Position numbers and translations under genes: made by a program. 64,000 nt of DNA, from the IMG/VR virus record IMGVR_UViG_3300014205_000174; one strand, given 5' to 3'. This document shows, piece after piece, positions 38,761 to 62,746 of the stretch; within the stretch, counting starts at the first letter, position 1; every line of letters begins with the position of its first letter. The notes below the pieces were generated by a model, which worked only from the letters and a program-made list of their open reading frames with translations, was not told the DNA's origin and did not search any database. The stretch is from a virus (taxonomy: Duplodnaviria > Caudoviricetes).

Positions 38761-39495
38761 ATGCAGACCCGGATAATCATAAATAATATAGAAAAAAATT
38801 TCCAGGATAATTTCAGGCCCAGGGTTCTTCGTGGGCGGAAAGACGCTTTTGTAAATTCGGGAGGCGGCCTTGAGGGCGCGCCTACTGGCGGTATGATTGG
38901 TACCGGAGGCCCAACCCCGCCAGCGCCGAAGCCAAAGTACGATAAGTACGCAGCAAGGGTAATACCAAAACCCGGAATCGAAAGCCTTCCGCCTGTAATA
39001 AATGCTACGCCAACAACTGTTTTACCACCACCACCACCTACGCCACCACCAGTAGTGCATCCTGCTGCCGGTACGATACTGGAGACTTATTGTGCCGGTA
39101 CGAATAGAATGCGTGCATATGCGGATGGTCGTGGCGGAGCAACTACATCTGTATTGGAGACAAACAGCACTAGTTGCGGGTATACTCCTGCGCCACCACC
39201 ACCGCCGGATACAACGACAACTACTACAGTTGTAACCCAGCCTGCGCCTATACCGGATTACGGCAGTAGTGGGCCAGTTAGCGGTGGAAGTATAGGTGGT
39301 GGAGGCGGTGGCGGAAGTGAAGCGCCAATGTCTCCGGGTGGCGGTGCCGGTATGGGCATGCCGGAACCAGAGGCCCCTGTATTGCCGGAAAGCATTCTGA
39401 AAAAAGAAGTAATCAACTGGCCGTTAATTATAGGTGTAGTTGGTTGTTTTGGTGGAGTGTATTGGTACTTAGGCAGGAAGCAGGCAGCAGCGTAG
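38761..39495 (+). CDS. Pro-rich protein with a C-terminal TM and a small Cys-pair module
   Basis: FVNSGG motif; GTILETYC..YADGRGG..ETNSTSCGY; paralogue of 39520. Confidence 0.75.
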   Translation: MQTRIIINNIEKNFQDNFRPRVLRGRKDAFVNSGGGLEGAPTGGMIGTGGPTPPAPKPKYDKYAARVIPKPGIESLPPVINATPTTVLPPPPPTPPPVVHPAAGTILETYCAGTNRMRAYADGRGGATTSVLETNSTSCGYTPAPPPPPDTTTTTTVVTQPAPIPDYGSSGPVSGGSIGGGGGGGSEAPMSPGGGAGMGMPEPEAPVLPESILKKEVINWPLIIGVVGCFGGVYWYLGRKQAAA

Positions 39496-39519
39496 TCACC
39501 AGCAAAATCAGAAACCGAA

Positions 39520-39999
39520 ATGCGAAAAATCATAAATGACATAGACGCTAAATTTAGCAATGCCAATGGAGGTAGTGCTAAGGTGTTATACAATGGAGGT
39601 GGTGCTCAGACATTAGCTCCATTGGAGCCGTCATTTATCGGGATAGGAAATGTTACGCCATCCCAAAGACCGAAGTATGATAAGTATGCACCAAGGGATG
39701 TTGGCAATCCCAATTCAATCGAGTCTGTAGTTCCGGGTATGGGTGGCCCTCCGCCTCCGTCAGATAATCCGGTAGACAATGACATCGATACTGGCGACAA
39801 TACTGGCGACAACTATCCTGGCGGCAATAACAACCAGGGAGACCCGGAATACAACAACAACGACGTTATAACAAATAAGGATGTTAGTTCTTCGGTAGAA
39901 GAAAGCAAGGATAATAAGTCTCTGTTCATTTTTGCAGGGGTTGGCGTAGTTGGTTTATTGGCCGGCATATATTTTTACTTAAAAGGCAAAGAACAATGA
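39520..39999 (+). CDS. C-terminal TM protein
   Basis: FSNANG motif; PKYDKYA shared with 38761. Confidence 0.75.
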   Translation: MRKIINDIDAKFSNANGGSAKVLYNGGGAQTLAPLEPSFIGIGNVTPSQRPKYDKYAPRDVGNPNSIESVVPGMGGPPPPSDNPVDNDIDTGDNTGDNYPGGNNNQGDPEYNNNDVITNKDVSSSVEESKDNKSLFIFAGVGVVGLLAGIYFYLKGKEQ

Positions 40000-40469
40000 A
40001 TGAACAACAAAAGAAATTAGCGGGACAAATTCTTCTTGGGCTTACTGTAGTTGGCGGTATATACCTTTTATATCGCAACAACAGGAAGAATAAGGCAGCC
40101 GTCAGCAATACGGTTATGGATATGCCTCAGCCGCCTGTGATGCCGGTTGTGAATCCAATTAGCCAGGTAGAGAACACTACGCCTATAGATAACTTTGACG
40201 TGGTGAAAGATGTGGTGCCGCCAGTGCCAGATATCCCTATAGTGCCAGTTAATACTGTGGTGCCGCCAGTCACTACACCGGTTAAGCGCGAAGATGTGTT
40301 AATCGGTAATCTCATGAAGGCAATAAATATTCTACCAGGTGGTACTAATCTTGATAAAGCAAAAAGATTCCTTGACGCAAACGGCGTAGACATAAGTACG
40401 CTGGCGGATTCAACCGACCAGGGTATTGTTAATTTTGCAGTAGCTAATGGGTGGAACCCAGCGGCATAA
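39996..40469 (+). CDS. N-terminal TM protein
   Basis: TM followed by a basic cluster and a Pro/Val linker. Confidence 0.7.
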   Translation: MNEQQKKLAGQILLGLTVVGGIYLLYRNNRKNKAAVSNTVMDMPQPPVMPVVNPISQVENTTPIDNFDVVKDVVPPVPDIPIVPVNTVVPPVTTPVKREDVLIGNLMKAINILPGGTNLDKAKRFLDANGVDISTLADSTDQGIVNFAVANGWNPAA

Positions 40470-40480
40470 ATACAGGAACA

Positions 40481-40861
40481 ATGGATAACATACAACTAGG
40501 AAATAATCCGGCTCCAGCGTTGGAAATGCCAAGTCCGGCATTAAGCGCGCCTATGGCCCCACCCGCACCAACCCCAACACCAGCTCCGGTATTGGCCCCA
40601 ACTCCGCCAATGCCTATGCAGTCGCCTGCTATGGGAATTGGGGGTAGTGGGAAGTTTGATTGGCTGCGCGATATCAACTGGATGGAAACAATCATTTGCG
40701 GCTTAGCAGTTGGTGCGCTTAGCTATGTTATTGCCTACTACCGGTTTAAGCTGAAAGAGGATAAGCTCATTGGTGCAGATACACAGCGCCAGTTGGATAA
40801 TCTTGGGTTGAGGCTAGGAAAGACCGAGTCCTCTTTGATACAGGCCGGCATTGCTGTTTAA
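40481..40861 (+). CDS. Pro-rich single-TM protein
   Basis: Likely start at ATG 40481; central TM. Confidence 0.65.
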   Translation: MDNIQLGNNPAPALEMPSPALSAPMAPPAPTPTPAPVLAPTPPMPMQSPAMGIGGSGKFDWLRDINWMETIICGLAVGALSYVIAYYRFKLKEDKLIGADTQRQLDNLGLRLGKTESSLIQAGIAV

Positions 40862-40890
40862 ATCATTAATCACACATAGTTTATAAAAGA

Positions 40891-40917
40891 CGAAAGCCCC
40901 CAAATTGGGGGCTTTCG
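40891..40917. terminator. intrinsic terminator hairpin
   Basis: CGAAAGCCCCCAA-A-TTGGGGGCTTTCG perfect inverted repeat. Confidence 0.75.
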
Positions 40918-41071
40918 CTTACGTGGCAATAGTAAAGAAAAAAACAAACCGAAGTAAAGATAATCAAAATAATTTATTTTTAAAATCAAGGCATTGCGTT
41001 TTTATTTTTCATATTCCTTTATTATCTTTGAAAATCTTTCCAAGTTAGTTTCAAAGCAAACCAATTTAATT

Positions 41072-42664: not shown

Positions 42665-43552
42665 ATGCCTGGTACAAGGGATTGTTTAGTTACGTTAGTG
42701 GTTGGTAAAAAAAAGGTAGGTAAAACACACACTACAATTCAGATGCTTGATGATATCGTCCGTGGCGATATTGCCAATGGCATTAAGCCAAGGAAGGCGC
42801 TGATATTTGATGTGAACAATGAGTTTTCCGACTTTAAGTTTAAGGGCCAGCAGCGAGCTATAAAAGCGTTGTACATAAGGGATATCGCAAGGTTTAGCTC
42901 CAGCAATATTATCGAGATAAGGCGAATACGGCCCTACTTTGACGATGGAAGCCGCATGTCTACTGAGGATATGTCGAAGGTGCTGGCCATCATTATGGAT
43001 AATTACCGGCGCGGGGTGCTACTCGTAGAGGATATAAATAAATATGTTACCGACTCAATCAATGGAGATTTGATAGGCAACCTCGCCACTGCTCGACATA
43101 TAGGATTAGATGTTATATGCCACTATCAGCAGATTTCTCGTGCCGGAAATCCTAAATTATTCGGTAACGCTAACTTTATTCGTTTTCATAAAACCAATGA
43201 TACGGTAGCGCGTCATGAACTGAAGTTCCAGGAGAAGACGGAGCTGTTGCAGTTGGCCGAGAATATAGTTAACTACTACTATAACGTCAAGGGGTATGAG
43301 GAAGACGAAAAGTATAAGTACTTCTTTCTTTGGGTTGATGTAGATGAATCTAAAATAAAGGCTGGCAATTTCAAAATAACGGACGAGGATATTGAGCGTA
43401 GCATTAATGAATATGTATCAGGCAATACCACCAGGCTATTAAAGCCACTCATGCAGCGTCTGGATTTAACAACAAACAAGAAAGTGTTTGCTTCAGAGTC
43501 AGAAGGTATCCGGTATATTATTAAGCAACTCAAGAGAACATACTTTGAATAA
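42665..43552 (+). CDS. A32/P9-like genome-packaging ATPase (FtsK-HerA superfamily)
   Basis: Walker A GKKKVGKT near the N-terminus; Walker B VLLVED; ARHIGLDVICHYQ signature; 295 aa. Confidence 0.8.
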   Translation: MPGTRDCLVTLVVGKKKVGKTHTTIQMLDDIVRGDIANGIKPRKALIFDVNNEFSDFKFKGQQRAIKALYIRDIARFSSSNIIEIRRIRPYFDDGSRMSTEDMSKVLAIIMDNYRRGVLLVEDINKYVTDSINGDLIGNLATARHIGLDVICHYQQISRAGNPKLFGNANFIRFHKTNDTVARHELKFQEKTELLQLAENIVNYYYNVKGYEEDEKYKYFFLWVDVDESKIKAGNFKITDEDIERSINEYVSGNTTRLLKPLMQRLDLTTNKKVFASESEGIRYIIKQLKRTYFE

Positions 43553-43763: not shown

Positions 43764-43847
43764 AAAAGTATTCAAATAATTTTGTTATTCTGGAAACTAT
43801 ATTTACATTTATGCTTTATATATTTTTCAACTAAAATTTTAATTACA

Positions 43848-44039
43848 ATGCAAGAGGGCACAGTTAAGTTTTTTAATGACTCCAAAGGATTTGGATTCAT
43901 TACGCCATCCACAGGTGGCAAAGATATTTTCGTTCATGTATCCGGCACAAAGGATGAAATCCGGGAGAACGACAGGGTATCCTACGAAGTAGAAAATGGT
44001 AAGAAGGGCTTAAATGCCATAAACGTAAGAGTAATCTAG
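43848..44039 (+). CDS. cspA: cold-shock protein
   Basis: MQEGTVKFFNDSKGFGFIT..DIFVHVSG (RNP1/RNP2); ATG at 43848. Confidence 0.95.
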   Translation: MQEGTVKFFNDSKGFGFITPSTGGKDIFVHVSGTKDEIRENDRVSYEVENGKKGLNAINVRVI

Positions 44040-44606: not shown

Positions 44607-45353
44607 ATGAACAACCGTATTCAAAAGTATTTAAGCCGTAGCCACCGCGAGGCTAATGAAACATATAGCAACTTCGGTGGCGCACAGGGCTTTCAAAGTT
44701 TTGCCGGTGGCCAGGAGCGTTATTTTAACGCTGACGGCGCTGGCGCGGTAATGGCGGATGCGAGCGAATCGCAGCCATATATCCTGCAAATATCAAACTC
44801 TGCGGCTTCTGCTGTATCGAGCTTTGACGTTCTGGGTGCGAGCACCTATTTGCAGAATGTGAGCAACGGTACCTGGTCTTCTGGCAGCCTTACTGTGAGT
44901 GGCGTAACTATCAGTTCGCTGATAACCAACGTAACTTACCAGGACTTCCTGTCACAGTCAAACATCAACCCATTCACCATCGGCCTTACTTACGTACAGG
45001 CAGTTGTGAATAACGCGCAGCCATTCCAGCCGTACACGATAAACACCAAGGACTCAAACGGTAACCAGGCGTTACGTACCATCTCTCCTTTCCTTGACCC
45101 TTACCAGTTCCAGGCAGGTGTGAGCGTGAACAAAACTCCTTACCGCATCGACGGCCTGACAAAGATTACCTTTGCGGCTGTTCTGCCTTCTGCTGTGTTC
45201 TATCTGTTCTTATTCCCTGCTGCAAACGTAAACCCTGCAAGGGCGCTGGGCGACGGCAGCCAGGTTCGCGGCTACGGAAACCCGGATGTAATCCGCAGCA
45301 ACGTTGCCGTAATCAACGGCGGTGGTGCAGTTGCGAAACGCATCGGCGGATAA
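44607..45353 (+). CDS. candidate major capsid protein (beta-rich, possibly single jelly-roll)
   Basis: Strong AAC/TTC/TAC/ATC codon bias; own AT-rich leader and terminator; about 170-aa beta-strand-like core; close to the packaging ATPase. Confidence 0.55.
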   Translation: MNNRIQKYLSRSHREANETYSNFGGAQGFQSFAGGQERYFNADGAGAVMADASESQPYILQISNSAASAVSSFDVLGASTYLQNVSNGTWSSGSLTVSGVTISSLITNVTYQDFLSQSNINPFTIGLTYVQAVVNNAQPFQPYTINTKDSNGNQALRTISPFLDPYQFQAGVSVNKTPYRIDGLTKITFAAVLPSAVFYLFLFPAANVNPARALGDGSQVRGYGNPDVIRSNVAVINGGGAVAKRIGG

Positions 45354-45438: not shown

Positions 45439-45807
45439 ATGAATACTACACAATATATAGCTAATACAGCATCTGATGCGGCTGTTGATGTGCTGGGTAA
45501 ATATGGTTTGCAGCCGACCGATAATTCGGAGACATCAATTTCCCGCGCTCTGGATATTATGATAGCAGAAAACGGGGAGCCTGCGCTGAAAGATATGCTG
45601 AATATCCATCCTGATAAGGACGATATTCTTCATTATTTTCAGGCGACAGCCCAGCCACCCGCTATGCAAGGGAATAATAATCACAACGATTACCTCCGTG
45701 ATTCCCGCAATAGCGGGATGAACAATATGTTTGAGGGGGTTTCCAATAAGACAGTGGTGGTAGTTGGTGCAATCCTGATGGCTGCGCTTATTTTACGTAA
45801 TAATTAA
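45439..45807 (+). CDS. C-terminal TM protein
   Basis: IHPDKD motif; C-terminal hydrophobic helix. Confidence 0.7.
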   Translation: MNTTQYIANTASDAAVDVLGKYGLQPTDNSETSISRALDIMIAENGEPALKDMLNIHPDKDDILHYFQATAQPPAMQGNNNHNDYLRDSRNSGMNNMFEGVSNKTVVVVGAILMAALILRNN

Positions 45808-45814: not shown

Positions 45815-46519
45815 ATGGGGCACGAAATGAACGACACAGGGTATAGCGGGTTTGCAGATGCAAGCCAGGACGCGCTGGGTAACTACGGCAGGGATATGAT
45901 ATATTATTCCGTGGTTAACAGGCCCGCTGACGTCGTGACGATATTAAACAGTAACGGAGTTGTGGTGCAAAAGAATGTAGATACTAAAAAACTACACTTC
46001 ATTGCATTAAAGTCAATGACCGAAAGCACAAACATAAAGAATGAGATGGCGGATTTGCTGTATCACGTAGCGACAGGCAATAAGGGGCCGTTTTCGGCAA
46101 CAAAACGAAAGAGCCAGTCACCACGCTACCATGCCACCACGGTCATTAGCACCACTACGACCCGGCATCGTGCAAGTAATTCCTTTGACGGCATTTCCAG
46201 TGATTTGGACTGCGGGGTAAAAGGAGATGCGCCATACAGCTCATTTGCTGACGGGACTACCGACAGCACCAAGGAGGCCGACACGCTTACGTTTAAGGAC
46301 TTATTGGGCAAGAGTTTAGACCTTGCCATCGTGTATATGGCTACACAGGGGAATAAGGGGGTAAGCAAGGAGGTGAATAATGCTGAAGCTGTAGCGAAAG
46401 CAAAAGCTGCCGCCGAGGAAAAGTCAAGACAGCAAAGAAGAAGCTTCCAGATATTTGCCGGGGTACTGATACTTGGCGCATTAGGCTTCGCGGCCTATAA
46501 GTACAGTCAGAAGAAGTAA
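45815..46519 (+). CDS. C-terminal TM protein
   Basis: YSGFAD and YSSFADG motifs; TM followed by KK. Confidence 0.7.
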   Translation: MGHEMNDTGYSGFADASQDALGNYGRDMIYYSVVNRPADVVTILNSNGVVVQKNVDTKKLHFIALKSMTESTNIKNEMADLLYHVATGNKGPFSATKRKSQSPRYHATTVISTTTTRHRASNSFDGISSDLDCGVKGDAPYSSFADGTTDSTKEADTLTFKDLLGKSLDLAIVYMATQGNKGVSKEVNNAEAVAKAKAAAEEKSRQQRRSFQIFAGVLILGALGFAAYKYSQKK

Positions 46520-46566: not shown

Positions 46567-46740
46567 ATGAGTAAAAATCAAAAGTACTTGTTAATCGGGG
46601 TTGCAATAGTCGGCGTGGTTTTGTATTTGAACCACAGCAAAAAAGAAAAAGCAACTGCCGGTGCTGCGCCAGCGCCACCAGATGCAGCCACGACAAATTT
46701 TGCCGGTAATGAGCGAATGTTCTCAAGAATTATTGCATAA
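46567..46740 (+). CDS. 57-aa single-TM protein (not in the ORF track)
   Basis: MSKNQKYLLIGVAIVGVVLYL...TNFAGNERMFSRIIA. Confidence 0.7.
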   Translation: MSKNQKYLLIGVAIVGVVLYLNHSKKEKATAGAAPAPPDAATTNFAGNERMFSRIIA

Positions 46741-49228: not shown

Positions 49229-50029
49229 ATGTATAGAGCGATTAATAACCTGGATAATTTTGGCCGTGTTCTTACGGGAGCGGAAAATTTCTTTAACCAG
49301 GACGGGCAGGGTGATGGCGGCCTTAGTCTCGATGGCCTGGATTGCATGGCTCTGTCTCAATTGCATGAACAGGCGCGAAACAGCTATGACGCAGCCATGG
49401 CTCATGCTGCGGCTAACCCTGATATTCAGTATATTATGGCTCCGGGGACTGCCGAAAAAGCCACCATGAATACTATTATGAGCAAGATGGTGAATATGGG
49501 GTGCCAGATAAATGTTCAAAATAAACCAAGCATAGTCTCTATGCCGCCAGTTTACGCTACTTCCGGCCCTGATGTAATGCCGGAAAGCACGACTACAGGC
49601 CAGACACTTCCGACTGGAGCTGGAGCGCCGGGTTCAACCGGTAATAATGCGCCATGTGGTTGTGGTTGCAAGGATTGCGGCGGCAAGACAAATGAAATAT
49701 TAAACGACGTTGGTAGCGCCGGTAAAGGGCTGGGCAATGCGGTATTCAATACGGGTAAAGATGTCATGGATGCTATCTCCGGTATTTTGCGTGATATAGG
49801 CCAGGCTGTAGGTATTATAGGGCCGGATAAGACAGCGGCAAAGATGCCCGCGCAGTCCGTTAATTATGCTAATGCTTCTGGTAATGGAGGTGCATCAAGA
49901 GGCGGGAGCGCTATGCGCACTGTTGGGGGTGATTCCCAGGTGTCGACAGATGCAAGGGCTGCGTCCATAAGAAACAATCATCACGTTGGTTACCACAATG
50001 GAGACCGTGGGACTATGGGTATCAGGTAA
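49229..50029 (+). CDS. hypothetical virion-region protein
   Basis: FFNQDG and YANASG motifs; CGCGCKDC. Confidence 0.7.
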   Translation: MYRAINNLDNFGRVLTGAENFFNQDGQGDGGLSLDGLDCMALSQLHEQARNSYDAAMAHAAANPDIQYIMAPGTAEKATMNTIMSKMVNMGCQINVQNKPSIVSMPPVYATSGPDVMPESTTTGQTLPTGAGAPGSTGNNAPCGCGCKDCGGKTNEILNDVGSAGKGLGNAVFNTGKDVMDAISGILRDIGQAVGIIGPDKTAAKMPAQSVNYANASGNGGASRGGSAMRTVGGDSQVSTDARAASIRNNHHVGYHNGDRGTMGIR

Positions 50030-50056: not shown

Positions 50057-50599
50057 ATGGAGAATAAAAATTTGATAATTTTTGGTTTACTGGCTGTAAG
50101 CGGCATTTCATTCTATTTATATAAGAAGGAAGCTGACAAGGTGGCTGTACCTAAAAGTTCTTCAAATAAAAAGGCGGTTTTAGAGAATAAAGTACTCACT
50201 CAAAAAGTGAATTATGTATCAAATACAGATTCTGCGCCATTGAACGCCGAAGCGGCCCTGTCAGTCGATGGGCTCCAAAGAGTACCCAACCCTAGTAAAT
50301 ATATATTTCTTAAAGACGTTAGTGTTGAAGGTCAATATTGTGATTTTAAAATTGATGAAATAACAAGAGAAGGCGCTAGTGTATGTACGAAAGGTATAAA
50401 ATCTTACAAAAAAGGAGATTCTATATTAGGTCACTTTTCAGAGTCAACAACCGGCGCATTAATGCCACCAACTATCTCCTGGATAGAAGATGATAGGAGG
50501 GCATATGCGATTGTCGGAGATGACGCCAAGGCTATGGCAGACGCAGCAGGAAGTACATCATTTTCGGGTAACGAACAATATTGGCAGGCATTCAGATAA
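50057..50599 (+). CDS. single-TM protein, paralogue of 53532
   Basis: KYIF.KD..YKKG.SI.G.F; ends FSGNEQYWQAFR. Confidence 0.75.
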   Translation: MENKNLIIFGLLAVSGISFYLYKKEADKVAVPKSSSNKKAVLENKVLTQKVNYVSNTDSAPLNAEAALSVDGLQRVPNPSKYIFLKDVSVEGQYCDFKIDEITREGASVCTKGIKSYKKGDSILGHFSESTTGALMPPTISWIEDDRRAYAIVGDDAKAMADAAGSTSFSGNEQYWQAFR

Positions 50600-51172: not shown

Positions 51173-51478
51173 ATGAATACTGTAAAATCAAGAAATCAAC
51201 TATACCGGGAAAGCGGCAGTTTGCTGCCATTTAAGGCGTGGCTACAGCAGCACATGAATAACGTGGTGCATCAGGCGCTGGTAGAATCTGAGTACCTGAA
51301 CTATGACGGACAGGCTGCCTCGGATAGTTTGGCAACCGAACCTAACCTGCCATTCAAGCCGGTACTTGAAAAGACTTCTATTCTCGGGATACCGAAGAAT
51401 TATCTTTATGCTGGTCTTATGGGCCTGGTACTTTATTCTGCTTACAAACTAAGCGAAAGCACGCTTTTCAATAAATAA
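51173..51478 (+). CDS. C-terminal TM protein
   Basis: NQLYRESG..FKAW; YLNYDG motif. Confidence 0.7.
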   Translation: MNTVKSRNQLYRESGSLLPFKAWLQQHMNNVVHQALVESEYLNYDGQAASDSLATEPNLPFKPVLEKTSILGIPKNYLYAGLMGLVLYSAYKLSESTLFNK

Positions 51479-51486: not shown

Positions 51487-51831
51487 ATGGAAATAAGCAC
51501 AGAAGGTAAATACGGATTTTTCGCCACTCTTATTGGGATTGGATGGATATCTTATGTGATTTATAATAACCATAAGAACAGCAAGGACATAGCTGCTATC
51601 AAAAGCCGCCAGGATAAGCTGGATGCCAATATCTCAATGACTAATAAGAGTCAGTCACAGCCTATTGGTATGTCTTTCTCTGGCTTTGCCGGGCAGCCGG
51701 ATAGTATGAAGTCCTATGGGCCGGCAGAAGGGTCTATTCAGGATTTCGACACCCGTCAACCAATTACTTATCCAAAGCTGGTTGTGAAGAAAGTTTTTGG
51801 CCGGGATGTTATTGAAACAATGTGCGGGTAA
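51487..51831 (+). CDS. N-terminal TM protein
   Basis: FSGFAG motif. Confidence 0.7.
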   Translation: MEISTEGKYGFFATLIGIGWISYVIYNNHKNSKDIAAIKSRQDKLDANISMTNKSQSQPIGMSFSGFAGQPDSMKSYGPAEGSIQDFDTRQPITYPKLVVKKVFGRDVIETMCG

Positions 51832-51852: not shown

Positions 51853-52650
51853 ATGATATACACTATACCTACAAGATTCGAAGAATTTACACTGGCCGTC
51901 AAGGTGGCTACCGCGTCGCCGCAGGTAATTCGGATAATTTTGAAAGATGTAGACCTCCCAAACACTGAATTTACAAACAGGTATAAGACGGTGAACGGCG
52001 AATTTACCTTCTTTATCCGCGTTCCGGTGTCAGGCAGAGAGGCGAAGCTGATTATTTATAATGAAGACATAGGCAATATTCCGAGTGCAAGCGATAGGAC
52101 ATTCCAGGTGCTGAATATAGAAAAACAGCCACTGGAAAAGAGGCTGGATATGATTGACTTCAGCATTAATCCGCTGCTTAAATCGTTCGTTAAATTCGCG
52201 ACGAGGTTTTGTTATAATGCCGGGGCGTTAAGGCCTGATAATTATACATCCGCTGACCGGCGCTTTATTATTCAGTACCTGCCCACAATTATCAATGAAC
52301 GTGGGCAAGTAGTGAATACATCGGCTCGAATCAGCAAGCAGACCGGTATAATACAGGTTTCGCAGGATAAGTTCATTCCCATGACGTTCCCTATGCGCAT
52401 GGCTATTTTGTTTCATGAGTTTTCGCATTTTTATCTAAATGACGAAATCAATGACGAGGTAGAAGCCGATATCAATGCGCTGATTATTTATCTTGGCCTT
52501 GGATATCCGCGAATAGAAGCCCATGACGCATGGTTAGTGGCATTTATGGGAGCGCCCACAGAGGAGAATGAACATAGGTATAAGATACTGAAGGAGTTTA
52601 TTGAAGACTTTGATAATACAAAAACATTAATTAATATTCCGTACCCATGA
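51853..52650 (+). CDS. zincin-like metallopeptidase
   Basis: ILFHEFSHFY...EVEAD (HExxH plus downstream E). Confidence 0.75.
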   Translation: MIYTIPTRFEEFTLAVKVATASPQVIRIILKDVDLPNTEFTNRYKTVNGEFTFFIRVPVSGREAKLIIYNEDIGNIPSASDRTFQVLNIEKQPLEKRLDMIDFSINPLLKSFVKFATRFCYNAGALRPDNYTSADRRFIIQYLPTIINERGQVVNTSARISKQTGIIQVSQDKFIPMTFPMRMAILFHEFSHFYLNDEINDEVEADINALIIYLGLGYPRIEAHDAWLVAFMGAPTEENEHRYKILKEFIEDFDNTKTLINIPYP

Positions 52651-52943
52651 TGAGCGAAAACAAGAAGACTTTGATATTTGTGGCCATATTTGCCGCATTA
52701 ATTACAGGTGCGTACTTTGTATCGAAGAAATTGTCAGAAAAAAAGAAAGACGATAATATCGGCAAGGAGGCAAAGGTGCTTTTTATTTTAAAAAATAGCG
52801 GCGGCTCCGGGGATGTGAATTTTTTGATTACGCTTCATGACGATTATATAGACGCATGGTATGATGCAGTAAAAAACAAGGCCGCTTATTTTAATTCCGG
52901 CGGCGGGAAGTTTGATGCGGTTACGGGGAAGGCAAGGGCATAA
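52647..52943 (+). CDS. N-terminal TM protein
   Basis: TM followed by a Lys cluster. Confidence 0.7.
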   Translation: MMSENKKTLIFVAIFAALITGAYFVSKKLSEKKKDDNIGKEAKVLFILKNSGGSGDVNFLITLHDDYIDAWYDAVKNKAAYFNSGGGKFDAVTGKARA

Positions 52944-53531: not shown

Positions 53532-54113
53532 ATGGAGAACAGCACAAAAATATTGCTTGGTGTAGGCGCAGGTGCAGGTATAGCACTTGTGTTGCTATAC
53601 AATAAATATGGCCGGACTAGCTCAGGGAATAGTAAAACTAAATCTGGCTCAATTTCGGCAGGTGCAGGCGTAGCGACGGTGGTAAAGGGACAAATAATGG
53701 GTGTATCGAGTAATGGTATGAGGGATAATAACGTTCCATTACCAAATTGTCAAAAATACATTTTTCATAAAGACATGACTATAGGTGCCGATGGCCCTTT
53801 GCATATGCCTTGTTCGTTATCGGAAGGTCAGAAATACCCTAAGTGCGAGACTCCGACTAAAACTTACAAAAAAGGAGAAAGTATTTGCGGTGTGTTTCGC
53901 CAAGGGTCAGACCCAGGGTCAAGAGCCGGCGGCGGAACTGGGCCGCAACCTGGTGCTGCTTCAGAATCACCAAATCTTAGGTGGGTAGATGGAGGCGCGC
54001 AATACTCTGTGATTGGACAAGATGCCGTCGATATGCACAAATTTAGTACTGATACAACTCACATGTATGCAGGTTTTGCAGGTAATGAACGTAGGTGGCA
54101 GAATTTCAGATAA
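53532..54113 (+). CDS. single-TM protein, paralogue of 50057 and 16653
   Basis: Ends YAGFAGNERRWQNFR. Confidence 0.75.
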   Translation: MENSTKILLGVGAGAGIALVLLYNKYGRTSSGNSKTKSGSISAGAGVATVVKGQIMGVSSNGMRDNNVPLPNCQKYIFHKDMTIGADGPLHMPCSLSEGQKYPKCETPTKTYKKGESICGVFRQGSDPGSRAGGGTGPQPGAASESPNLRWVDGGAQYSVIGQDAVDMHKFSTDTTHMYAGFAGNERRWQNFR

Positions 54114-54724: not shown

Positions 54725-55234
54725 ATGGTGAAACCAATAAATCTTCGTCCGGATGAACAGGGGTATAGCAATATGAACGGCATAGAGCGCGTCGCTAATA
54801 ATGTTATAGATACGCTACGCGCTCCATTTGTTGCGAAGAAAAATAAAAAGTCGAAGCCTGAAGCGGACTCTGGAGAGTCTGTTTCTACCGGAGATTCTAT
54901 GGCGACTAAAAAGATTACACCAGTTATTGCTCCGACTACAGTAACGGAGCCGGAGGATAGTTGGCCGGAGGGGTGGTCATTGCCTGTATATCCGTATAAG
55001 GACGAAGAAGTTATTGCTCCGTCACCGAATAAAATGAATGAAGTTGACAGAGTGAGCACGATGATTTTTGGTAAGCCGGCGAATGAAGTCGGAGATTATT
55101 ATACTTCAAATATTTCCGGTAAGGGGAGTGGAAAAAAACCAAATAATGCATGGATTGGCTGGGTTATATTGGCGGTGGTTGTTGGGGCGGGAGGATTTTA
55201 TGCTTACAAAAAGTTTCATAAAAAAGACGCGTAA
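54725..55234 (+). CDS. C-terminal TM protein
   Basis: YSNMNG motif; TM followed by KK. Confidence 0.7.
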   Translation: MVKPINLRPDEQGYSNMNGIERVANNVIDTLRAPFVAKKNKKSKPEADSGESVSTGDSMATKKITPVIAPTTVTEPEDSWPEGWSLPVYPYKDEEVIAPSPNKMNEVDRVSTMIFGKPANEVGDYYTSNISGKGSGKKPNNAWIGWVILAVVVGAGGFYAYKKFHKKDA

Positions 55235-55608
55235 TGATTAAAAAAGAAATTTTCGGAGCGGGTATGACAACCCCATTTTTAAATGCATCTGGCGATAGTA
55301 CCAATGGATTTAGAATGGACTTGTATCCATTAGGCACTGAGCCGCCATATACTAATCCGTATCTACCACCACTACCTACTGAAGGGACTGCGGTAGATGC
55401 TGATAAACAACATAATGAAGCGGCTGACGTGCACATTGCAATTCAGGACTTTCTTCTCGGTAAGCCAGATGTTGATATGGATGCGCCGAGGTCAAAAAAT
55501 AAAAATAGCAGTACTCCAAATAAAAAACCTAATAATACGCCGTATATTGTAGCGGGTGTGGCGGTAGTCGTGATAATTATTGGAATTGTTGTTATTGTAA
55601 AAAAATAA
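55234..55608 (+). CDS. C-terminal TM protein
   Basis: FLNASG motif. Confidence 0.7.
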   Translation: MIKKEIFGAGMTTPFLNASGDSTNGFRMDLYPLGTEPPYTNPYLPPLPTEGTAVDADKQHNEAADVHIAIQDFLLGKPDVDMDAPRSKNKNSSTPNKKPNNTPYIVAGVAVVVIIIGIVVIVKK

Positions 55609-55611: not shown

Positions 55612-55959
55612 ATGCCAGATTTTTTAAACCAGGATGGTACATCGTTTAATTGGGGGGCAATTGGCGGCGGCTTAAATGCCCTTGGCGGCGTTGCCGGACA
55701 ATACTTTTCGGCACAAGCTAATGCGGATGCAATGAAAGCTATTGAGGGTGGTAGAAATGCAGCATCGAAAGAAATAGCAGAAATAAATGCACAGGCGGCA
55801 ATTGAAATTGCAAGAAATCAAACTAATGCTGCTCTTGCGGCGGCAAGAGCTCAATCGGGGTCTGGGGCAGGAATGGGAATAAGCGGTACGACTTTAATAA
55901 TAGGCGGTGTAGTAGCACTAATAGCCACAATCGCTATTACTGTAGCTTTAATGAGATAA
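55612..55959 (+). CDS. Ala/Gly-rich C-terminal TM protein, paralogue of 62366
   Basis: FLNQDG motif. Confidence 0.7.
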   Translation: MPDFLNQDGTSFNWGAIGGGLNALGGVAGQYFSAQANADAMKAIEGGRNAASKEIAEINAQAAIEIARNQTNAALAAARAQSGSGAGMGISGTTLIIGGVVALIATIAITVALMR

Positions 55960-55968: not shown

Positions 55969-56730
55969 ATGAAAAAATCAATCATTTCCGATTTAGACGC
56001 ATTAAATATAACAGGGGCTAAAGATAGCCAATGGTTATATTCTCCTGGCAAAAAGGGAGTAAGGAGTGATATTGACTTTTTGAATGCAGATGGTGATGGT
56101 ACTTTCCGTTTTGATATGTACCCGAATCAGGAATCAGTAAAGGTTCACCCATTAGACATGACGCCAGGAGGCGAAGGTACTTTTCGCTTCGATTACGATA
56201 GCACCCCGGAACTTTATGACCAACATCGCGATACTGGTGGCTTTAATTTAATGGACTGGGGTAGCGAATTATTGCGTGGGAGTGACAGTAATAGCACGTC
56301 AGGTGGCGGTGGTGATTTTAATTTAATGGACTGGAGTAGCAGTTTGCTTAAGCCAGATAGTCAGCCAGGCGGATGGACTAAGCCGCCAAATGAGACAATA
56401 AATAAATTAGAGCCAGCGCCTTTAGAGAAGATGAATACCACGCCCAAGGCGCAGGGTAAAGTAGCTACATTACCTAAAACATGGATAACTGACCTGTTTA
56501 AATCAGTTGGCAATGCTGCCAGTCAGGCACTTTCGGCGGCGGCAAAAAATAGTGGTCAGTCTGCTCAAAAGCAAACACCGCAGAAGCAACAGCAAACTGC
56601 TGGTACCGCCGGTGCATCTGCGGGTGAAGCAACAAAGCCAAATACGTCGCTTATAATAGCGGTTGTGATTGGATTAGGTGTAGTAACTACCGTTGGAGTT
56701 GTGTTGTTTACTGGTTCAAAAAAGAAATAG
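55969..56730 (+). CDS. C-terminal TM protein with internal repeats
   Basis: FLNADG; GTFRFD x2; FNLMDW x2. Confidence 0.75.
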   Translation: MKKSIISDLDALNITGAKDSQWLYSPGKKGVRSDIDFLNADGDGTFRFDMYPNQESVKVHPLDMTPGGEGTFRFDYDSTPELYDQHRDTGGFNLMDWGSELLRGSDSNSTSGGGGDFNLMDWSSSLLKPDSQPGGWTKPPNETINKLEPAPLEKMNTTPKAQGKVATLPKTWITDLFKSVGNAASQALSAAAKNSGQSAQKQTPQKQQQTAGTAGASAGEATKPNTSLIIAVVIGLGVVTTVGVVLFTGSKKK

Positions 56731-56779: not shown

Positions 56780-58069
56780 ATGTTAAAATCGTTCAAATAC
56801 AGGTTAGATTTAAATGAGGAACAGAAAACGTTCTTCAATAAATCATTTGGCTGCGCAAGGGTGGTGTACAACCGCTGTCTTGACCGCCGAAAGGAACTGT
56901 ATGCGGACAACAAACAGACAATAAGCGCCTACGATTTAATTAATGAAATTACGTTACTAAAAAATACAGAAACGTATTATTGGCTTTCGGAAGTTGTTGC
57001 TCAAACACTACAGTGCGCTGTAATGAATCTCGACACCGCCTATAAGCAATTCTTTAATGGTGGTTTTGGTTTTCCAAAATACAAAAGTAAGTATGCTCGT
57101 CAGAGTTGCCAGTTCCCACAAAATGTAAGAATTAATTTTGATAACAACAAGGTGTGGTTCCCGAAACTCGGCTGGACACGAACACATATCAGCCGCCAGT
57201 TTACCGGCAAGATAAAAACCACTACCGTCAGTAAAAATGCTTCCGGCTATTACTACGTGAGTATCCTTGTTGACAATTCAAAGCCATTACCCGAGAAATC
57301 ACCGGTAGCGGCAGATACGGCCATAGGTATAGATGTAGGTGTGAAAACCCTTGCTACCTTCAGCGATGGCACAAAGATGGAGAATCCCAAGTACTACGCC
57401 AAGTCGCAACAGAGACTGGCAATATTGCAAGAACGTTTAAGCCGTAAGGATAAGAACCGGTATCCAACGTCAACAACGGACAAAAGCAGTAAACGGAGAG
57501 TGAAAGCTAAAAAAGCGGTTGCGAAACAGCACCAAAAAATCGTAAATCAGCGAACCGACTACTTACATAAACAGTCCACGAGAATAATCCGTGAGAACCA
57601 AACGATTATAATCGAGGACTTGAATATAGCTGGCATGACCAGCAGGGTGAAAACAAAGAAGCAGGACGAGAATGGCGCGTATCTACCAAACGGCCAGGCT
57701 GCGAAGTCCGGACTGAACAAAGCAATACTTGACGTAGGTATAGGTCAGTTCTTTGACATGCTGGAATACAAAGCAGAATGGTACGGTAGGAACTTAATCC
57801 GTATCGGACGCTTTGAGCCCAGTAGCAAGACCTGCTCAAACTGCGGTTACGTCAATCAAGCCCTTACACTTAAAGGCAGAGAGTGGATGTGCCCTGTGTG
57901 TGGAGTAAACCACGACCGGGACATAAACGCTGCTGTCAACGTTAAGGACATGGGGCTAAAACAATACTACTCAGAAATGAGAAAGGAATTTAAATTAAAG
58001 ACAGGGGAGGGCATCCCCAGTGTGGACAGTTCGGCTATAGATGTAAAATCTGGGGCCAAAGCTGTCTAG
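56780..58069 (+). CDS. tnpB: TnpB RNA-guided nuclease (IS200/IS605 family), no TnpA
   Basis: FKYRL..FGCARVVYN; GIDVGVK, IIIEDL, DRDINAA; CSNC/CPVC. Confidence 0.93.
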   Translation: MLKSFKYRLDLNEEQKTFFNKSFGCARVVYNRCLDRRKELYADNKQTISAYDLINEITLLKNTETYYWLSEVVAQTLQCAVMNLDTAYKQFFNGGFGFPKYKSKYARQSCQFPQNVRINFDNNKVWFPKLGWTRTHISRQFTGKIKTTTVSKNASGYYYVSILVDNSKPLPEKSPVAADTAIGIDVGVKTLATFSDGTKMENPKYYAKSQQRLAILQERLSRKDKNRYPTSTTDKSSKRRVKAKKAVAKQHQKIVNQRTDYLHKQSTRIIRENQTIIIEDLNIAGMTSRVKTKKQDENGAYLPNGQAAKSGLNKAILDVGIGQFFDMLEYKAEWYGRNLIRIGRFEPSSKTCSNCGYVNQALTLKGREWMCPVCGVNHDRDINAAVNVKDMGLKQYYSEMRKEFKLKTGEGIPSVDSSAIDVKSGAKAV

Positions 58070-58207: not shown

Positions 58208-58453
58208 ATGTCTCTATTGCCTAAAAACTGGTTCAATGATTTAGTGAAATCCGTTAGCGATTCGGCCTCAAAGGCAATTGAAAAAGCCGCAAACGGAAAT
58301 GAAAATCCTGAGAAGGAAGAAAAAGAAGAAACAAAAGTAGTTGTGGTAGAGAAGGAAGTAATATCAACTCCAGTAATTATTTGTACATTAGTTGGCGTTG
58401 CAATAATTGCAGGCGTAGTAGTTCACTTATTCAAGAACAAAAAAAATAATTAA
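58208..58453 (+). CDS. C-terminal TM protein
   Basis: LPKNWFNDLVKSV resembles LPKTWITDLFKSV of 55969. Confidence 0.7.
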   Translation: MSLLPKNWFNDLVKSVSDSASKAIEKAANGNENPEKEEKEETKVVVVEKEVISTPVIICTLVGVAIIAGVVVHLFKNKKNN

Positions 58454-59645: not shown

Positions 59646-60287
59646 ATGAGCAAACATATAATAGGAGATAGTGACGTAGCTAATAGGGCAATCATTGGCG
59701 GTGCCGATGACCAGTGGGCTAATAGCTTTGGTGATGTTCTGCTCAATGTACTGAGCGGCGGCGTTACCGGGGCTATAACGGTTCATAATAATGGTGGAGA
59801 TGCCGACAGTGTGATGCGGCATGTTCTTACCGGAGGCATGTCATTTACGGCAGATGAAACCGGTATAAGTAAAGGGTTCAAAACTAAAACACAAAGAGAA
59901 TCGGATGCGTGGAATCAAAAAAACCCATACACGCTTTTCCCTCTTCCAGCTAACCCTACATGCCGGAACATGACCGACTTAAAAAACAGGCTCATTTTAG
60001 AACAGGCTTCAGCGCAATATACGTATACCGGGAAAATTATAAAGTATATACAGGAGATAGATAAAGCGCTATCTGATAACAATTGCAAAAAAGCACTTGA
60101 GGATGAGACTGCGGCCAACCAGCAGAATCGTTTATTAAGTGCTGCACAAGCGGCGCTGGGTGTAAACACCAAGTCGTCCGCCTCATCTGGTTCCGGGATG
60201 GGGTTGTCGCCGCTGTCTATTGCATTAATAGTGGGTGGCGTTATGATGACCGCAGTCCTGATAGTTGCATTAAAGCCTGCGAGCTAA
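59646..60287 (+). CDS. C-terminal TM protein
   Basis: Ser/Gly linker followed by a TM. Confidence 0.7.
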   Translation: MSKHIIGDSDVANRAIIGGADDQWANSFGDVLLNVLSGGVTGAITVHNNGGDADSVMRHVLTGGMSFTADETGISKGFKTKTQRESDAWNQKNPYTLFPLPANPTCRNMTDLKNRLILEQASAQYTYTGKIIKYIQEIDKALSDNNCKKALEDETAANQQNRLLSAAQAALGVNTKSSASSGSGMGLSPLSIALIVGGVMMTAVLIVALKPAS

Positions 60288-60323: not shown

Positions 60324-60719
60324 ATGGATGCAAAAAGAATCGGAGTATCGGCAGTAGGTGGTGTGGTAGGATATTGGGCCGGAGGTAGAATTGCTAAAAT
60401 GATGCCGGGAAATAAATACGGCAAGTATTTTGGGCCGGTATTAGGTGTGGCCGCCACGGTAGTTTTATACAATGCTTACGGTGAGGGTATAAAGATTCAG
60501 GCCGGTAATGGTTTCAGCAATGCATCTGGAACTAATCGTGCGCAATATTCGCAACGAGACAGTAATGGTAACGTTGTCATGGCAGCGGCTCCCGGTAAAG
60601 CTGCATTAACCAGTGCTGCGGTTAATAAAACACGGCGGCAACCAGCAAACCCTGGACTCTCTTTTAAAGAGCGCTACGATAAATTCATGAAACAATATTT
60701 TGGCATCGGCAGAGCATAA
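60324..60719 (+). CDS. glycine-zipper membrane protein, paralogue of 60754
   Basis: FSNASG motif. Confidence 0.7.
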   Translation: MDAKRIGVSAVGGVVGYWAGGRIAKMMPGNKYGKYFGPVLGVAATVVLYNAYGEGIKIQAGNGFSNASGTNRAQYSQRDSNGNVVMAAAPGKAALTSAAVNKTRRQPANPGLSFKERYDKFMKQYFGIGRA

Positions 60720-60753: not shown

Positions 60754-61134
60754 ATGGACGGTAAAAAAATAGGTGCGACAATAGTAGGCGGGGTGATAGG
60801 CTCGGTGGTCGGATTCGGCATCGCCAGTTTACTTGCAGACAATAAATATGCTAAATTAATGGGGCCTGCATTCGGGCTTACTGTGGCATTGGCTGTTTAT
60901 ACAAGGTACAAGCCAAGTGTAGCTGGTAGCGACACTGATGCTGGATATAGCAATGCTATAGGTAAAGGAGGATGGGCGACAGGCGGCAGTTATCTTCCAT
61001 CGTTCCCTGCCAGCTCCAGCGGCTCTTCTGCTAAAACAGAGCGCAAGAAATTATGGCCAAAGTACAGCAAGGTGCAAAAATCAGATAGTAAGGAGCGCAA
61101 GGATATAAGCCTGGATACTAGAATATTATATTAA
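60754..61134 (+). CDS. glycine-zipper membrane protein, paralogue of 60324
   Basis: YSNAIG motif. Confidence 0.7.
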   Translation: MDGKKIGATIVGGVIGSVVGFGIASLLADNKYAKLMGPAFGLTVALAVYTRYKPSVAGSDTDAGYSNAIGKGGWATGGSYLPSFPASSSGSSAKTERKKLWPKYSKVQKSDSKERKDISLDTRILY

Positions 61135-61140
61135 AATTAT

Positions 61141-61148
61141 TACCTTTG
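61141..61148 (+). promoter_or_regulatory. Bacteroidota-type -7 promoter box
   Basis: TACCTTTG (TAnnTTTG) 16 nt upstream of the ATG at 61165. Confidence 0.55.
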
Positions 61149-61164
61149 TCGGAAACAAACCGGC

Positions 61165-61602
61165 ATGACAAAGACAATAATTACCGACGAGGAGAGAATA
61201 AAATCAATTATAAGGGAGACATTCGAGGGGGACGTAAACCAAAGACAATATTTTATCTGGAAAACCCACGAAGACTCTATAAAAGATACGTTCGAGAAAA
61301 ATAAAGAAGCGCGTGATTTGTATAGCTCTCATTTTTATGAGTTGACAGCGGAAGATGGCAGATTACTTGGTTTTATAAACATCATCCCATCGCTTAATAT
61401 GCTGTTCAGCTTTGGGCTAAAGCAGGAGGAGCGTACAGAAGAGAATAAGCGTTATTTTATACAGGCTATAGAAGAGGCAATACCAAATGGAGACATAGCT
61501 TGTAGTCTTTATAGTAAAAATACAAGGGGCATACGGTTCCTGGAGAACAATGGGTTTAGCAGGCAGGAGAATACAATAACTTTAGTTAAAAAACGAGAAT
61601 AG
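61165..61602 (+). CDS. GNAT-family acetyltransferase-like protein
   Basis: LLGFINI..SLYSKNTRGIRFLENNGF. Confidence 0.7.
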   Translation: MTKTIITDEERIKSIIRETFEGDVNQRQYFIWKTHEDSIKDTFEKNKEARDLYSSHFYELTAEDGRLLGFINIIPSLNMLFSFGLKQEERTEENKRYFIQAIEEAIPNGDIACSLYSKNTRGIRFLENNGFSRQENTITLVKKRE

Positions 61603-61604
61603 AA

Positions 61605-61970
61605 ATGGCTGTATTGTTAATAGTTGGTGTTGTTGGTGCTGTTGTTGGTCTTACCGGTACCGCAGTTGGTGCCGGGCAGAAGAGTAAGGCCATGAAGCTG
61701 AGCAAGCAAATGGCTATAACGCAGAACCAGCAGAATGCATTACTAAGTGACAGGCAGAACAATACGCAGATAGAAATAGGTATTAACCATGACGTAGGTT
61801 CTGTCATTAGCTCTGTGATTAAAACAAGGCTTGATAACGAGGCGACCATAACGGCAGCGGCCCGGGCCGCAACAATGAGCAAGCAGGGAGACCTGCTTAT
61901 TATGGTTGGCGCTGGAATCACAGTACTCTCTTTGGCGGTTTTGGTTTTCAGGCGAAAAAAGCAAACATAA
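61605..61970 (+). CDS. membrane protein
   Basis: N- and C-terminal hydrophobic helices, RRKK tail. Confidence 0.7.
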   Translation: MAVLLIVGVVGAVVGLTGTAVGAGQKSKAMKLSKQMAITQNQQNALLSDRQNNTQIEIGINHDVGSVISSVIKTRLDNEATITAAARAATMSKQGDLLIMVGAGITVLSLAVLVFRRKKQT

Positions 61971-61999
61971 TTTATTCTTAAGCGCATAAAACACATATT

Positions 62000-62359
62000 A
62001 TGAACAGAGAGATATCGTACCAAAACTGGAATAACTCAAACACGGCATTTGTCAATGCTTCCGGTGATGATGAAAAGACCGGTGCCGGCCAATTTATCAG
62101 CGGACTAGGAAACTGGTTCGGGGATAACTCGGATAATATTTTCAAGCTGGCCGAAACCAAGATTAAGGCAGATACGCAAAAGGCCATAGCCAATGGCAGT
62201 AACATCGATACTACCGGCAATGTAGGTAATGTCGGTGCGTCAACATATGTGCCGGAGCCACCCAGCAACACTGGGTTTTATATTATGGCTACTGTTGGTG
62301 TCCTGGTTGTTGTCGGCGGCATTACTTATTTTGCAATGAAGAAAAAAACCGGGGCGTAA
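62000..62359 (+). CDS. C-terminal TM protein
   Basis: FVNASG motif; TM followed by KKK. Confidence 0.7.
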   Translation: MNREISYQNWNNSNTAFVNASGDDEKTGAGQFISGLGNWFGDNSDNIFKLAETKIKADTQKAIANGSNIDTTGNVGNVGASTYVPEPPSNTGFYIMATVGVLVVVGGITYFAMKKKTGA

Positions 62360-62365
62360 TAAAAC

Positions 62366-62746
62366 ATGGACTATCTCAATGACGTAGGCACCCAACCAAG
62401 TTTCTGGTCATCCAATGGTTCATGGATATCCCAGGGGGTTTCTGCTGTCGGAGGTATAGCGGCAGGTTATCTTTCAGCAAAAGAGCAGGCCAAAACCAAC
62501 AGAGACATAGCGTCAATGGATGTGCGGGGTAAGACCGAGGTGGCTAAATCGCAACTTGACGCGGAGCGGTATATACAGGAGCACCATGATTTGACGGCCA
62601 TAGAGATTGAAAAGATAAGGGCTATGGCCGCGATAAACGCTCCGCAAGCGCCAGCTAAAAGCAACGTAGTGATGATTGGTATTTTTGGTTTTTTAATAGT
62701 AGCAACGGTGGGTATTTTTTATATTGGAAGTATGCAACCTAAATAA
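62366..62746 (+). CDS. C-terminal TM protein, paralogue of 55612
   Basis: YLNDVG; GGIAAGYLSA. Confidence 0.7.
   Translation: MDYLNDVGTQPSFWSSNGSWISQGVSAVGGIAAGYLSAKEQAKTNRDIASMDVRGKTEVAKSQLDAERYIQEHHDLTAIEIEKIRAMAAINAPQAPAKSNVVMIGIFGFLIVATVGIFYIGSMQPK

Follow-up and report, generated by a model that had tools for sequence, protein, structure and literature searches.

The window analysed here, a 64,000-nucleotide stretch of viral DNA (IMG/VR record IMGVR_UViG_3300014205_000174), encodes in its latter part a block of small proteins, many of them membrane-anchored, which share a short peptide, aromatic-x-N-A-x-G. Judged from the sequences, this motif is real, belongs to the protein level and has arisen or been retained independently in at least 12 unrelated proteins, and it appears to be a short linear motif that selection has maintained in a single lineage of large uncultured viruses (contigs of 40–211 kb). 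We tentatively read it as a docking tag recognised by one common site during particle assembly, and give this reading slightly less than an even chance.

A first-pass annotation of the window had listed 17 peptides of the form [FY]-x-[NSG]-[AF]-x-G, all of which were recovered in + strand open reading frames (ORFs) where it had placed them. Its description of the motif as proteome-wide was too strong, as about 16 of the 46 ORFs in the block carry a canonical or variant copy, and the classes [NSG] and [AF] are looser than the data, although the motif itself held up. The block analysed spans 38.7–62.7 kb (7,446 amino acids (aa), 46 ORFs) and was compared with the region 1–38.7 kb (12,038 aa). 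For the strict form [FY]x[NSG][AF]xG the block gave 13 copies where 1.3 were expected, and the comparison region gave none where 1.7 were expected. The core form [FY]xNxxG was found 17 times in the block against 2.9 expected, a count reached in none of 2000 whole-protein shuffles. Shuffling inside 12-, 20- or 30-residue blocks gave a similar result (17 vs 3.0 expected, 0/2000), hence local composition does not explain the motif. Controls of the same composition were at chance in the block, whether the pattern was reversed (3 vs 2.9 expected), the Asn shifted, Asp or Gln put in place of Asn, Ala or Ser in place of Gly, or an aliphatic in place of the aromatic residue. Furthermore, when every gapped triplet was scanned without bias in a reduced alphabet (13,469 patterns), aromatic-x-N-x-x-G ranked first in the block (18 vs 3.3 expected, Poisson p 1.5e-8). 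Next came aromatic-x-x-A-x-G and N-A-x-G, both of them fragments of this motif.

When the motif was masked, BLAST among the carriers joined only three paralogue pairs (38761/39520, 55612/62366 and 60324/60754, named by start position), hence at least 12 carrier families are unrelated at BLAST level, as the first-pass annotation had supposed in speaking of mostly unrelated proteins. Paralogy was rejected as the origin of the copies on this ground. Synonymous codons vary between copies, so the signal lies in the protein, and a DNA-level signal was likewise rejected. An origin by chance, composition or paralogue ancestry, with no function attached, could draw on the biased composition of the arms that bear the motif and on the three paralogous pairs. 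However, no shuffle reached the observed count, those in 12-residue blocks included, the reversed pattern is flat in the window and far behind in the non-redundant proteins of related loci (94 reversed vs 385 forward), and the motif stands at fixed columns across 67 loci; we regard this origin as next to negligible.

Outside the block, 9 copies were counted in 1–38.7 kb against 3.9 expected, a borderline excess that 10 of 500 shuffles reach and that may be chance. Two canonical-looking copies outside the block, in giant or soluble proteins, are YFNDDG at residue 640 of 11944-16611 and FMNEDG at residue 180 of 23271-25133; these too may be chance.

The carriers in the window are given below with their copies (nt, nucleotide positions; TM, transmembrane segment), followed by one family member that has lost the canonical form and two neighbouring genes.

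44607..45353, + strand: putative major capsid protein, jelly-roll, 248 aa; YSNFGG (nt 44664-44681), FQSFAG (nt 44691-44708) and YFNADG (nt 44721-44738) in the N-terminal arm (N-arm)
38761..39495, + strand: Pro/Gly-rich protein, 244 aa; FVNSGG at residue 30 (nt 38848-38865); paralogue of 39520; hydrophobic C-terminal segment and basic tail by eye, no TM in a Kyte-Doolittle scan
39520..39999, + strand: tail-anchored protein, 159 aa; FSNANG at residue 12 (nt 39553-39570)
45815..46519, + strand: tail-anchored protein, 234 aa; YSSFADG, a variant longer by one residue (nt 46235-46255)
49229..50029, + strand: Gly-rich protein, 266 aa; FFNQDG at residue 21 (nt 49289-49306) and YANASG at residue 213 (nt 49865-49882)
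51173..51478, + strand: 101-aa protein; YLNYDG at residue 41 (nt 51293-51310)
51487..51831, + strand: 114-aa protein; Gly variant FSGFAG (nt 51676-51693); hydrophobic N-terminal stretch by eye, no TM in a Kyte-Doolittle scan
52647..52943, + strand: N-terminal-TM protein, 98 aa; YFNSGG close to the C-terminal end (nt 52887-52904)
53532..54113, + strand: N-terminal-TM protein, 193 aa; Gly variant YAGFAG close to the C-terminal end (nt 54066-54083); paralogue of 50057
54725..55234, + strand: tail-anchored protein, 169 aa; YSNMNG at residue 14 (nt 54764-54781)
55234..55608, + strand: tail-anchored protein, 124 aa; FLNASG at residue 15 (nt 55276-55293); member of a large tail-anchored cluster
55612..55959, + strand: tail-anchored protein, 115 aa; FLNQDG from residue 4 (nt 55621-55638)
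55969..56730, + strand: tail-anchored protein, 253 aa; FLNADG at residue 37 (nt 56077-56094)
59646..60287, + strand: tail-anchored protein, 213 aa; Trp variant WANSFG at residue 24 (nt 59715-59732)
60324..60719, + strand: membrane protein, 131 aa; FSNASG at residue 64 (nt 60513-60530); paralogue of 60754
60754..61134, + strand: membrane protein, 126 aa; YSNAIG at residue 65 (nt 60946-60963)
62000..62359, + strand: tail-anchored protein, 119 aa; FVNASG at residue 17 (nt 62048-62065)
62366..62746, + strand: tail-anchored protein, 126 aa; YLNDVG from residue 3 (nt 62372-62389); paralogue of 55612
45439..45807, + strand: tail-anchored protein, 122 aa; canonical form lost, YLRDSR at the motif column of its family
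42665..43552, + strand: P-loop ATPase, 295 aa; conserved, upstream of the jelly-roll gene, without a canonical motif
51853..52650, + strand: M48/minigluzincin-like zinc peptidase, 265 aa; soluble, motif-free, with an invariant HExxH...ExEAD

Motif density is 2.4 per 1000 residues in the tail-anchored class against 0.26 in multi-span proteins. Tail-anchored carriers mostly have basic C-tails, with the motif on the N-terminal side of the TM. In N-terminal-TM proteins the motif falls, by predicted topology, on the Lys/Arg-rich and presumably cytoplasmic side in 38 cases against 8. These sides are compatible with all copies being cytoplasmic, hence shell-facing in a PRD1-like assembly. A large protein database gave no homologue of 55612..55959 except itself.

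A profile search of IMG/VR gave 75 loci on contigs of ~7–100 kb, mostly 40–100 kb, of which 67 (L001–L067) are centred on the jelly-roll orthologue and eight (L068–L075) come from elsewhere in the same genomes. The conservation set consists of relatives at 33–55% identity; the closest jelly-roll proteins are 72–75% identical. The motif occurs 474 times in related loci against 159 expected. It was about threefold over expectation in the 67 orthologue-centred loci and was not enriched in the eight loci distant from the jelly-roll gene. Every one of the 67 jelly-roll orthologues has it in the N-arm, in 2–3 copies. In 40 homologues of the 248-aa protein in the large protein database, with identities down to 35%, the succession YxNADG, F-(A/T)-G, FFNADG is retained in an N-arm that otherwise varies. 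The consensus of 357 distinct copies is [ED]-x-[FY]-x-N-A-[SDT]-G, with the Ala in 43%. The first-pass annotation had tied its proposal to two expectations set in advance, enrichment over other genes and conservation in orthologues; both were borne out, the block being enriched over the remaining genes and the motif holding fixed alignment columns.

Clustering of 2,638 proteins gave the following counts by family, with window members named by start position.

Jelly-roll family (44607): motif in 68 of 72 members
Downstream tail-anchored family (45439): motif in 56 of 65 members
Large tail-anchored cluster (55234, 62000): motif in 70 of 211 members
Family of 51173: motif in 19 of 62 members
Soluble core (371-aa protein, ATPase, 147-aa family, 265-aa peptidase, 75-aa family): motif in 0–2 of 60–67 members each

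The four motif-free members of the jelly-roll family are mini forms or second paralogues, none of them the orthologue. The 45439 family has one fixed motif column, 20–30 residues ahead of the C-terminal TM and between a conserved helical domain and a variable linker, where the motif positions that are not forced by the anchor hold 2.3–3.0 bits against ~1.1 bits in the flanks. Many orthologues of this family in L001–L067 also have CGCxxC or CxCxxC a few residues before the motif and TM, a Cys-rich element which may be a small metal site and which the window's copy does not have. The L018 orthologue of 45815 (11273-12040) contains four tandem canonical copies.

An independent set of eight GTDB contigs from metagenome-assembled genomes (MAGs) held 38 copies against 10.9 expected. 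These contigs, all with the jelly-roll protein, show the motif in the N-arm and in the adjoining tail-anchored proteins, as in the IMG/VR loci. The taxonomy of the MAG bins with relatives is inconsistent and no single host group can be named; the contigs look like binned free virus contigs. The motif was not enriched in PRD1, PM2 or FLiP, hence it is lineage-specific. By tblastn, neither the ATPase nor the jelly-roll protein matched any of 50,697 phage records, no cultured relative came to light, and a literature search found no paper on this virus group or motif.

One relative, IMGVR_UViG_3300043539_001475 (G001, comprising L076–L081; 101,210 bp, rated complete), follows the order of the window, its giant proteins (1933 and 2575 aa) being succeeded by the ATPase, then by the jelly-roll gene and the small-membrane-protein block. 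It also has seven consecutive N-terminal-TM genes (110–308 aa, 63.1–66.9 kb) and three large fibre-like proteins with UspA1 repeats (70.9–80.1 kb).

The first-pass annotation had held the motif to be distinct from a Gly-Gly motif, and indeed the two separate by gene class. All genes of the window run in one strand direction. The first 36 kb encode giant multi-domain "polyvalent" proteins, with topoisomerase IB, ART-PolyVal, Strawberry-notch helicase, MoxR-like AAA+ and LPD23 domains, and a dense block of ~50 small + strand ORFs, the majority with a single TM, begins at ~36.8 kb. The Gly-Gly motif occurs 36 times in the giant proteins against 2.4 expected and three times in the block against 1.9 expected, while the same comparison for the new motif in the block gives 17 vs 2.7; the triplet scan of the first 38.7 kb returned the Gly-Gly motif as its best pattern. 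The two are mutually exclusive by gene class. The Gly-Gly joint motif of the polyvalent giant proteins, [FYML]xxGGx[VIL], is likewise short and starts with a hydrophobic or aromatic residue, but its spacing and fixed residues differ. Together they suggest one virus using two peptide codes for two classes of virion protein.

The structural model of the 248-aa protein has an N-terminal helix, a disordered arm (residues 12–53; predicted local distance difference test (pLDDT) ~29) and a beta-sandwich core; core residues 54–207 are mostly above pLDDT 85 and the arm is below 50. The core resembles the viral jelly rolls of PBCV-1, PR772, phiCjT23, FLiP and PRD1 only at Z 5–6.3. With a cut-off of E 0.01, neither Pfam nor PHROGs matched the jelly-roll protein, the peptidase or the 371-aa protein, and an ESM Atlas look-up of the jelly-roll protein gave sub-threshold leads only. 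No Terminase_6N was found in five related contigs, four of them ~100% complete by CheckV, and no tailed-phage hallmarks in the scanned proteins, PHROGs on 10 further G001 proteins returning only weak fibre matches; these negatives fit a tailless virus. The jelly-roll Z of ~6, the neighbouring HerA-like ATPase and the many tail-anchored proteins are the grounds on which we read the 248-aa protein as a capsid protein and the virus as having an internal membrane, and a capsid role in a tailless, membrane-containing virus is probable.

Relatives also encode other forms of the barrel, none of them with the motif. These are a tandem double-barrel form of 397 aa with PYIV...DPYQQQ...DGFT in each half (L069:9851-11044, IMGVR_UViG_3300002835_000070), mini forms of 146–153 aa that have no N-arm, and a second paralogue of 193–220 aa. 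Further barrel-variant loci are L068:605-1267, L070–L074 near 9.9–10.4 kb and L016:19974-20417. It is possible that the variants are hexon-like, penton-like and accessory shell proteins of one family.

Under the docking reading, the motif would be a tag in the flexible, low-complexity arms of the jelly-roll protein and at least a dozen small membrane proteins, with the aromatic residue as anchor and Asn/Gly...Gly as a tight turn. The peptide would fit one common binding site during particle assembly, and its binding would join membrane proteins and capsid protein in a single lattice; the jelly-roll protein itself would offer 2–3 copies, placed after its N-terminal helix and before the beta-barrel. 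The facing of the arms towards the capsid, the capsid identity of the 248-aa protein, the binding of a partner by the motif and the nature of that partner are all points we infer.

Replacements at the Asn column bear on how the motif is recognised. The Asn is exchanged nearly always for Gly (FIGVDG, FxGADG; 10/10 and 10/11 replacements), and at the third capsid-protein copy also for Ser, Gln, Arg or Ala. Asn and Gly both favour turn conformations but have no chemistry in common. The exchange therefore favours a recognised shape over self-cleavage, cross-linking or glycosylation of Asn. Nodavirus and tetravirus capsid cleavage sites are Asn-Ala and Asn-Phe, and Ala follows the Asn in 43% of our copies and Phe in 9%, while Ser or Thr stands at +2 in ~32%, hence the conserved Asn might itself do chemistry, be it self-cleavage at Asn-Ala/Asn-Phe, a Lys-Asn isopeptide cross-link or N-x-S/T glycosylation. 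However, Gly replaces Asn in whole clades and at both capsid-protein copies, the third accepting the four other residues, and most copies lie outside N-x-S/T, so that we consider such chemistry very improbable. Three specific candidates were rejected. Autoproteolysis of the nodavirus N|A or tetravirus N|F kind relies on an invariant Asn, and the orthologous columns hold Gly, Ser, Gln, Arg and Ala. An N-x-S/T sequon does not agree with ~32% Ser/Thr and 18% Asp at that position or with an Asn exchangeable with Gly. A DxDxDG or EF-hand-like calcium loop calls for Asp (or Asn/Ser) at position 1 and an oxygen ligand at position 3, but every copy begins with Phe, Tyr or Trp, and Gly may stand third.

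The 265-aa putative peptidase is a candidate reader or cutter of the motif. Its invariant residues are H188, E189, H192, E202 and E204, and the model (pLDDT 85) combines an N-terminal beta-sandwich, CBM (carbohydrate-binding module)/GOLD-like with Z 8.3 to 7kwc, with a C-terminal peptidase domain that matches BepA (6sar, Z 8.0 over 121 residues), 3c37 (Z 6.6) and abylysin (4jiu, Z 6.2). Its profile gave nothing meaningful against PDB sequences, and members searched singly against Pfam gave weak zincin hints only (E 0.02–0.14). The gene is present in 63 of 67 loci, contains no motif copy and is conserved like the jelly-roll protein, with 44% identity to the G001 orthologue.

This enzyme raises the question of whether the motif is the recognition or cleavage site of a maturation protease that trims the arms of capsid and membrane proteins after assembly. 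Vaccinia I7 cuts A17 and so releases the D13 scaffold, and T4 gp21 removes targeting peptides. M48 enzymes act on membrane proteins, and zincins commonly favour a bulky hydrophobic residue just after the cut, and the motif begins with Phe or Tyr. A motif-free peptidase with invariant catalytic signature and a BepA-, 3c37- and abylysin-like C-domain inside the block, together with copies in accessible disordered arms, would suit this role, and the positions in the capsid-protein arm and the 45439 linker fit. However, at least nine unrelated families have a motif that begins no later than residue 8 (MPDFLNQDG, MDYLNDVG, MKMTWANADG and MSSFLGADG, for example), and propeptide cleavage is disfavoured because a cut at residues 3–8 removes almost nothing, freeing just 2–7 residues. 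In addition, a processing site seldom comes in two to four tandem copies, a cut in the 45439 family would sever the best-conserved domain from its anchor, and the peptidase fold match is middling, with peptidoglycan-associated or host proteins as conceivable substrates. We consider a cleavage role unlikely. Copies number 1–4 per protein, with acidic spacers in the tandem arrays, a range typical of avidity-based binding motifs, and the sequence evidence leans towards a docking or recognition tag over propeptide cleavage.

The same copy number, and the interchange of Asn, Gly and Ser, could also suit a scheme with no dedicated receptor, in which weak multivalent arm–arm contacts condense the capsid protein onto membrane patches rich in viral protein, in the manner of kinked segments that are low in complexity and rich in aromatic residues (LARKS; PMC10477902). 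The arms are disordered and rich in Gly, Ser, Asn, Asp and aromatic residues, which agrees with the LARKS composition criterion, capsid-like and membrane proteins have the same motif, and the analysis identified no motif-free reader. Against this, the strict spacing, the Ala at +3 in 43% and the acidic residue at -2 suggest a defined pocket over generic stickiness, and many carriers have a single copy; this scheme seems quite unlikely.

The reader could instead belong to the host, for example a factor for membrane targeting or insertion, a chaperone or a protease. Tail-anchored proteins need post-translational targeting, most carriers are tail-anchored and no viral reader was identified. However, the most conserved copies are on the soluble jelly-roll protein, the membrane-containing phages PRD1, PM2 and FLiP, from other hosts and Flavobacterium, show no enrichment, and the bin taxonomy of the relatives points to no single host group, which makes a host reader improbable.

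Several observations weigh against a docking tag. With one site per subunit and 2–3 motifs of its own, the jelly-roll protein might saturate its own sites, and the conserved zinc peptidase in the same block leaves a cleavage role possible. The window member of the best-conserved carrier family (45439) is without the canonical motif. The basic C-tails of the tail-anchored proteins conflict with the positive-inside rule (115 to 19), which blurs the argument from topology. Furthermore, the capsid role of the 248-aa protein relies on a jelly-roll fold of middling Z (5–6.3), and TNF-like, spike jelly-roll and carbohydrate-binding (CBM) sandwiches score like capsid proteins. Co-folding of jelly-roll residues 50–248 with the peptidase and the 55969 arm (residues 18–62) scored 0.00 in both runs, which counts neither for nor against binding. 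Co-variation of Asn and Gly between proteins of one genome, a sign of a co-evolving reader, was sought and not seen; both forms occur together in one genome, mixed. The docking tag nevertheless remains the reading we favour. In its fuller version, the jelly-roll coat would select membrane cargo and link its own subunits through one tag, with the Gly-Gly motif as a separate code for the internal giant proteins, much as the first-pass annotation proposed in its two address codes; we hold this version to be possible though doubtful. The annotation's interpretation found partial support, for a selected signal particular to one gene class.

Among the neighbouring genes, the ATPase is 38% identical to its G001 orthologue, which has a weak DUF87/HerA match (E 4e-4, below the Pfam cut-off). 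YYNVKG at residue 205, in the folded part of the ATPase, is probably a chance match. The ATPase and jelly-roll genes are ~1 kb apart with two small ORFs in between. One of these, 43782-44039, has a cold-shock-domain signature (GTVKFFNDSKGFGFI), and its FFNDSKG is the known RNP1 region and no copy of the motif. ORF 63494-63805 (103 aa) starts with MFGGNYGFFGGGVGGSS, a Gly/aromatic-rich N-terminus of a different kind, and has FVNGYG within an apparently folded beta region. The N-terminal-TM paralogues 50057-50599 and 53532-54113 (28% identity) both end in F-[SA]-G-N-E-x-x-W-Q-x-F-R, a tail whose start overlaps the Gly variant of the motif (YAGFAGNE, TSFSGNE), and the 57-aa ORF 46567-46740 ends in a similar NFAGNE. 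Three TnpB-like genes interrupt the structural block: 35295-36635, which matches OrfB_IS605 and Cas12f1-like_TNB in Pfam, 47281-48894 (537 aa), for which a Pfam scan gave no match, and 56780-58069, called TnpB from a reading of its sequence. After the third lies a small ORF, 58208-58453, which duplicates the C-terminal end of 55969-56730 in diverged form (28% identity).

How membrane proteins are selected and how shell and vesicle are coupled in internal-membrane viruses is poorly understood, even in PRD1 and PM2, and the motif offers a concrete, testable handle on this selection that is conserved across a broad group of uncultured viruses. If the tag docks to the shell, it would allow the virion membrane proteins of this lineage to be predicted from their sequences, serve as a portable tag with which proteins could be loaded into such particles and form an independent parallel to the poxvirus A17–D13 tether. 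If it is a protease site, it would tell what a new M48-like viral peptidase is specific for.

The closest documented parallel comes from vaccinia, in which a membrane protein bears at its free end a short aromatic-bearing peptide that docks to a jelly-roll lattice protein at the base facing the membrane: the F-ring of D13 binds both D13's own N-terminus and the A17 tail MSYLRYYN (PMC13672803). D13's own flexible N-terminus uses the same pocket, as the jelly-roll N-arm here shares the tag at the level of sequence, and the A17 tail is later acted on by a viral protease. However, the A17 tail does not resemble aromatic-x-N-A-x-G in sequence, a single membrane protein is tagged in vaccinia against a dozen in this block, D13 is a double jelly roll and the protein here a single barrel, and binding of the vaccinia tether is demonstrated whereas the present tag is known from sequence alone.

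The T4 capsid targeting sequence (internal proteins, gp21; reviewed in PMC3012670) is also a short peptide common to unrelated virion proteins that directs them into the particle. In T4 the tag is confined to the N-terminus, from which the prohead protease removes it, and it targets soluble internal proteins to the scaffold core, whereas the motif here lies on membrane and shell proteins, anywhere in the arm and sometimes in tandem.

Encapsulin cargo-loading peptides are short conserved peptides on flexible linkers which dock unrelated cargo to the inner face of the shell; unlike the motif, they are C-terminal and belong to an HK97-fold shell whose protein is itself untagged, with no membrane. 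The [FY]xNPx[YF] and related sorting signals place an aromatic residue two before a turn-making Asn in a membrane protein's cytosolic tail, for cargo selection by the coat adaptors of coated vesicles in eukaryotes. Our motif has no Pro at +3 and no aromatic at +5, and organisms and readers differ. The likeness is one of possible working and implies no homology. If the sorting-signal reading is true, the motif would be a bacterial-virus counterpart of coat-adaptor cargo selection and of A17–D13, extended over a dozen membrane proteins. Peptides that tether or load virion and shell components are known from T4, A17–D13 and encapsulins; what sets the present motif apart is its sequence, its sharing by a shell-like protein and a dozen membrane proteins, and the second motif that coexists with it.

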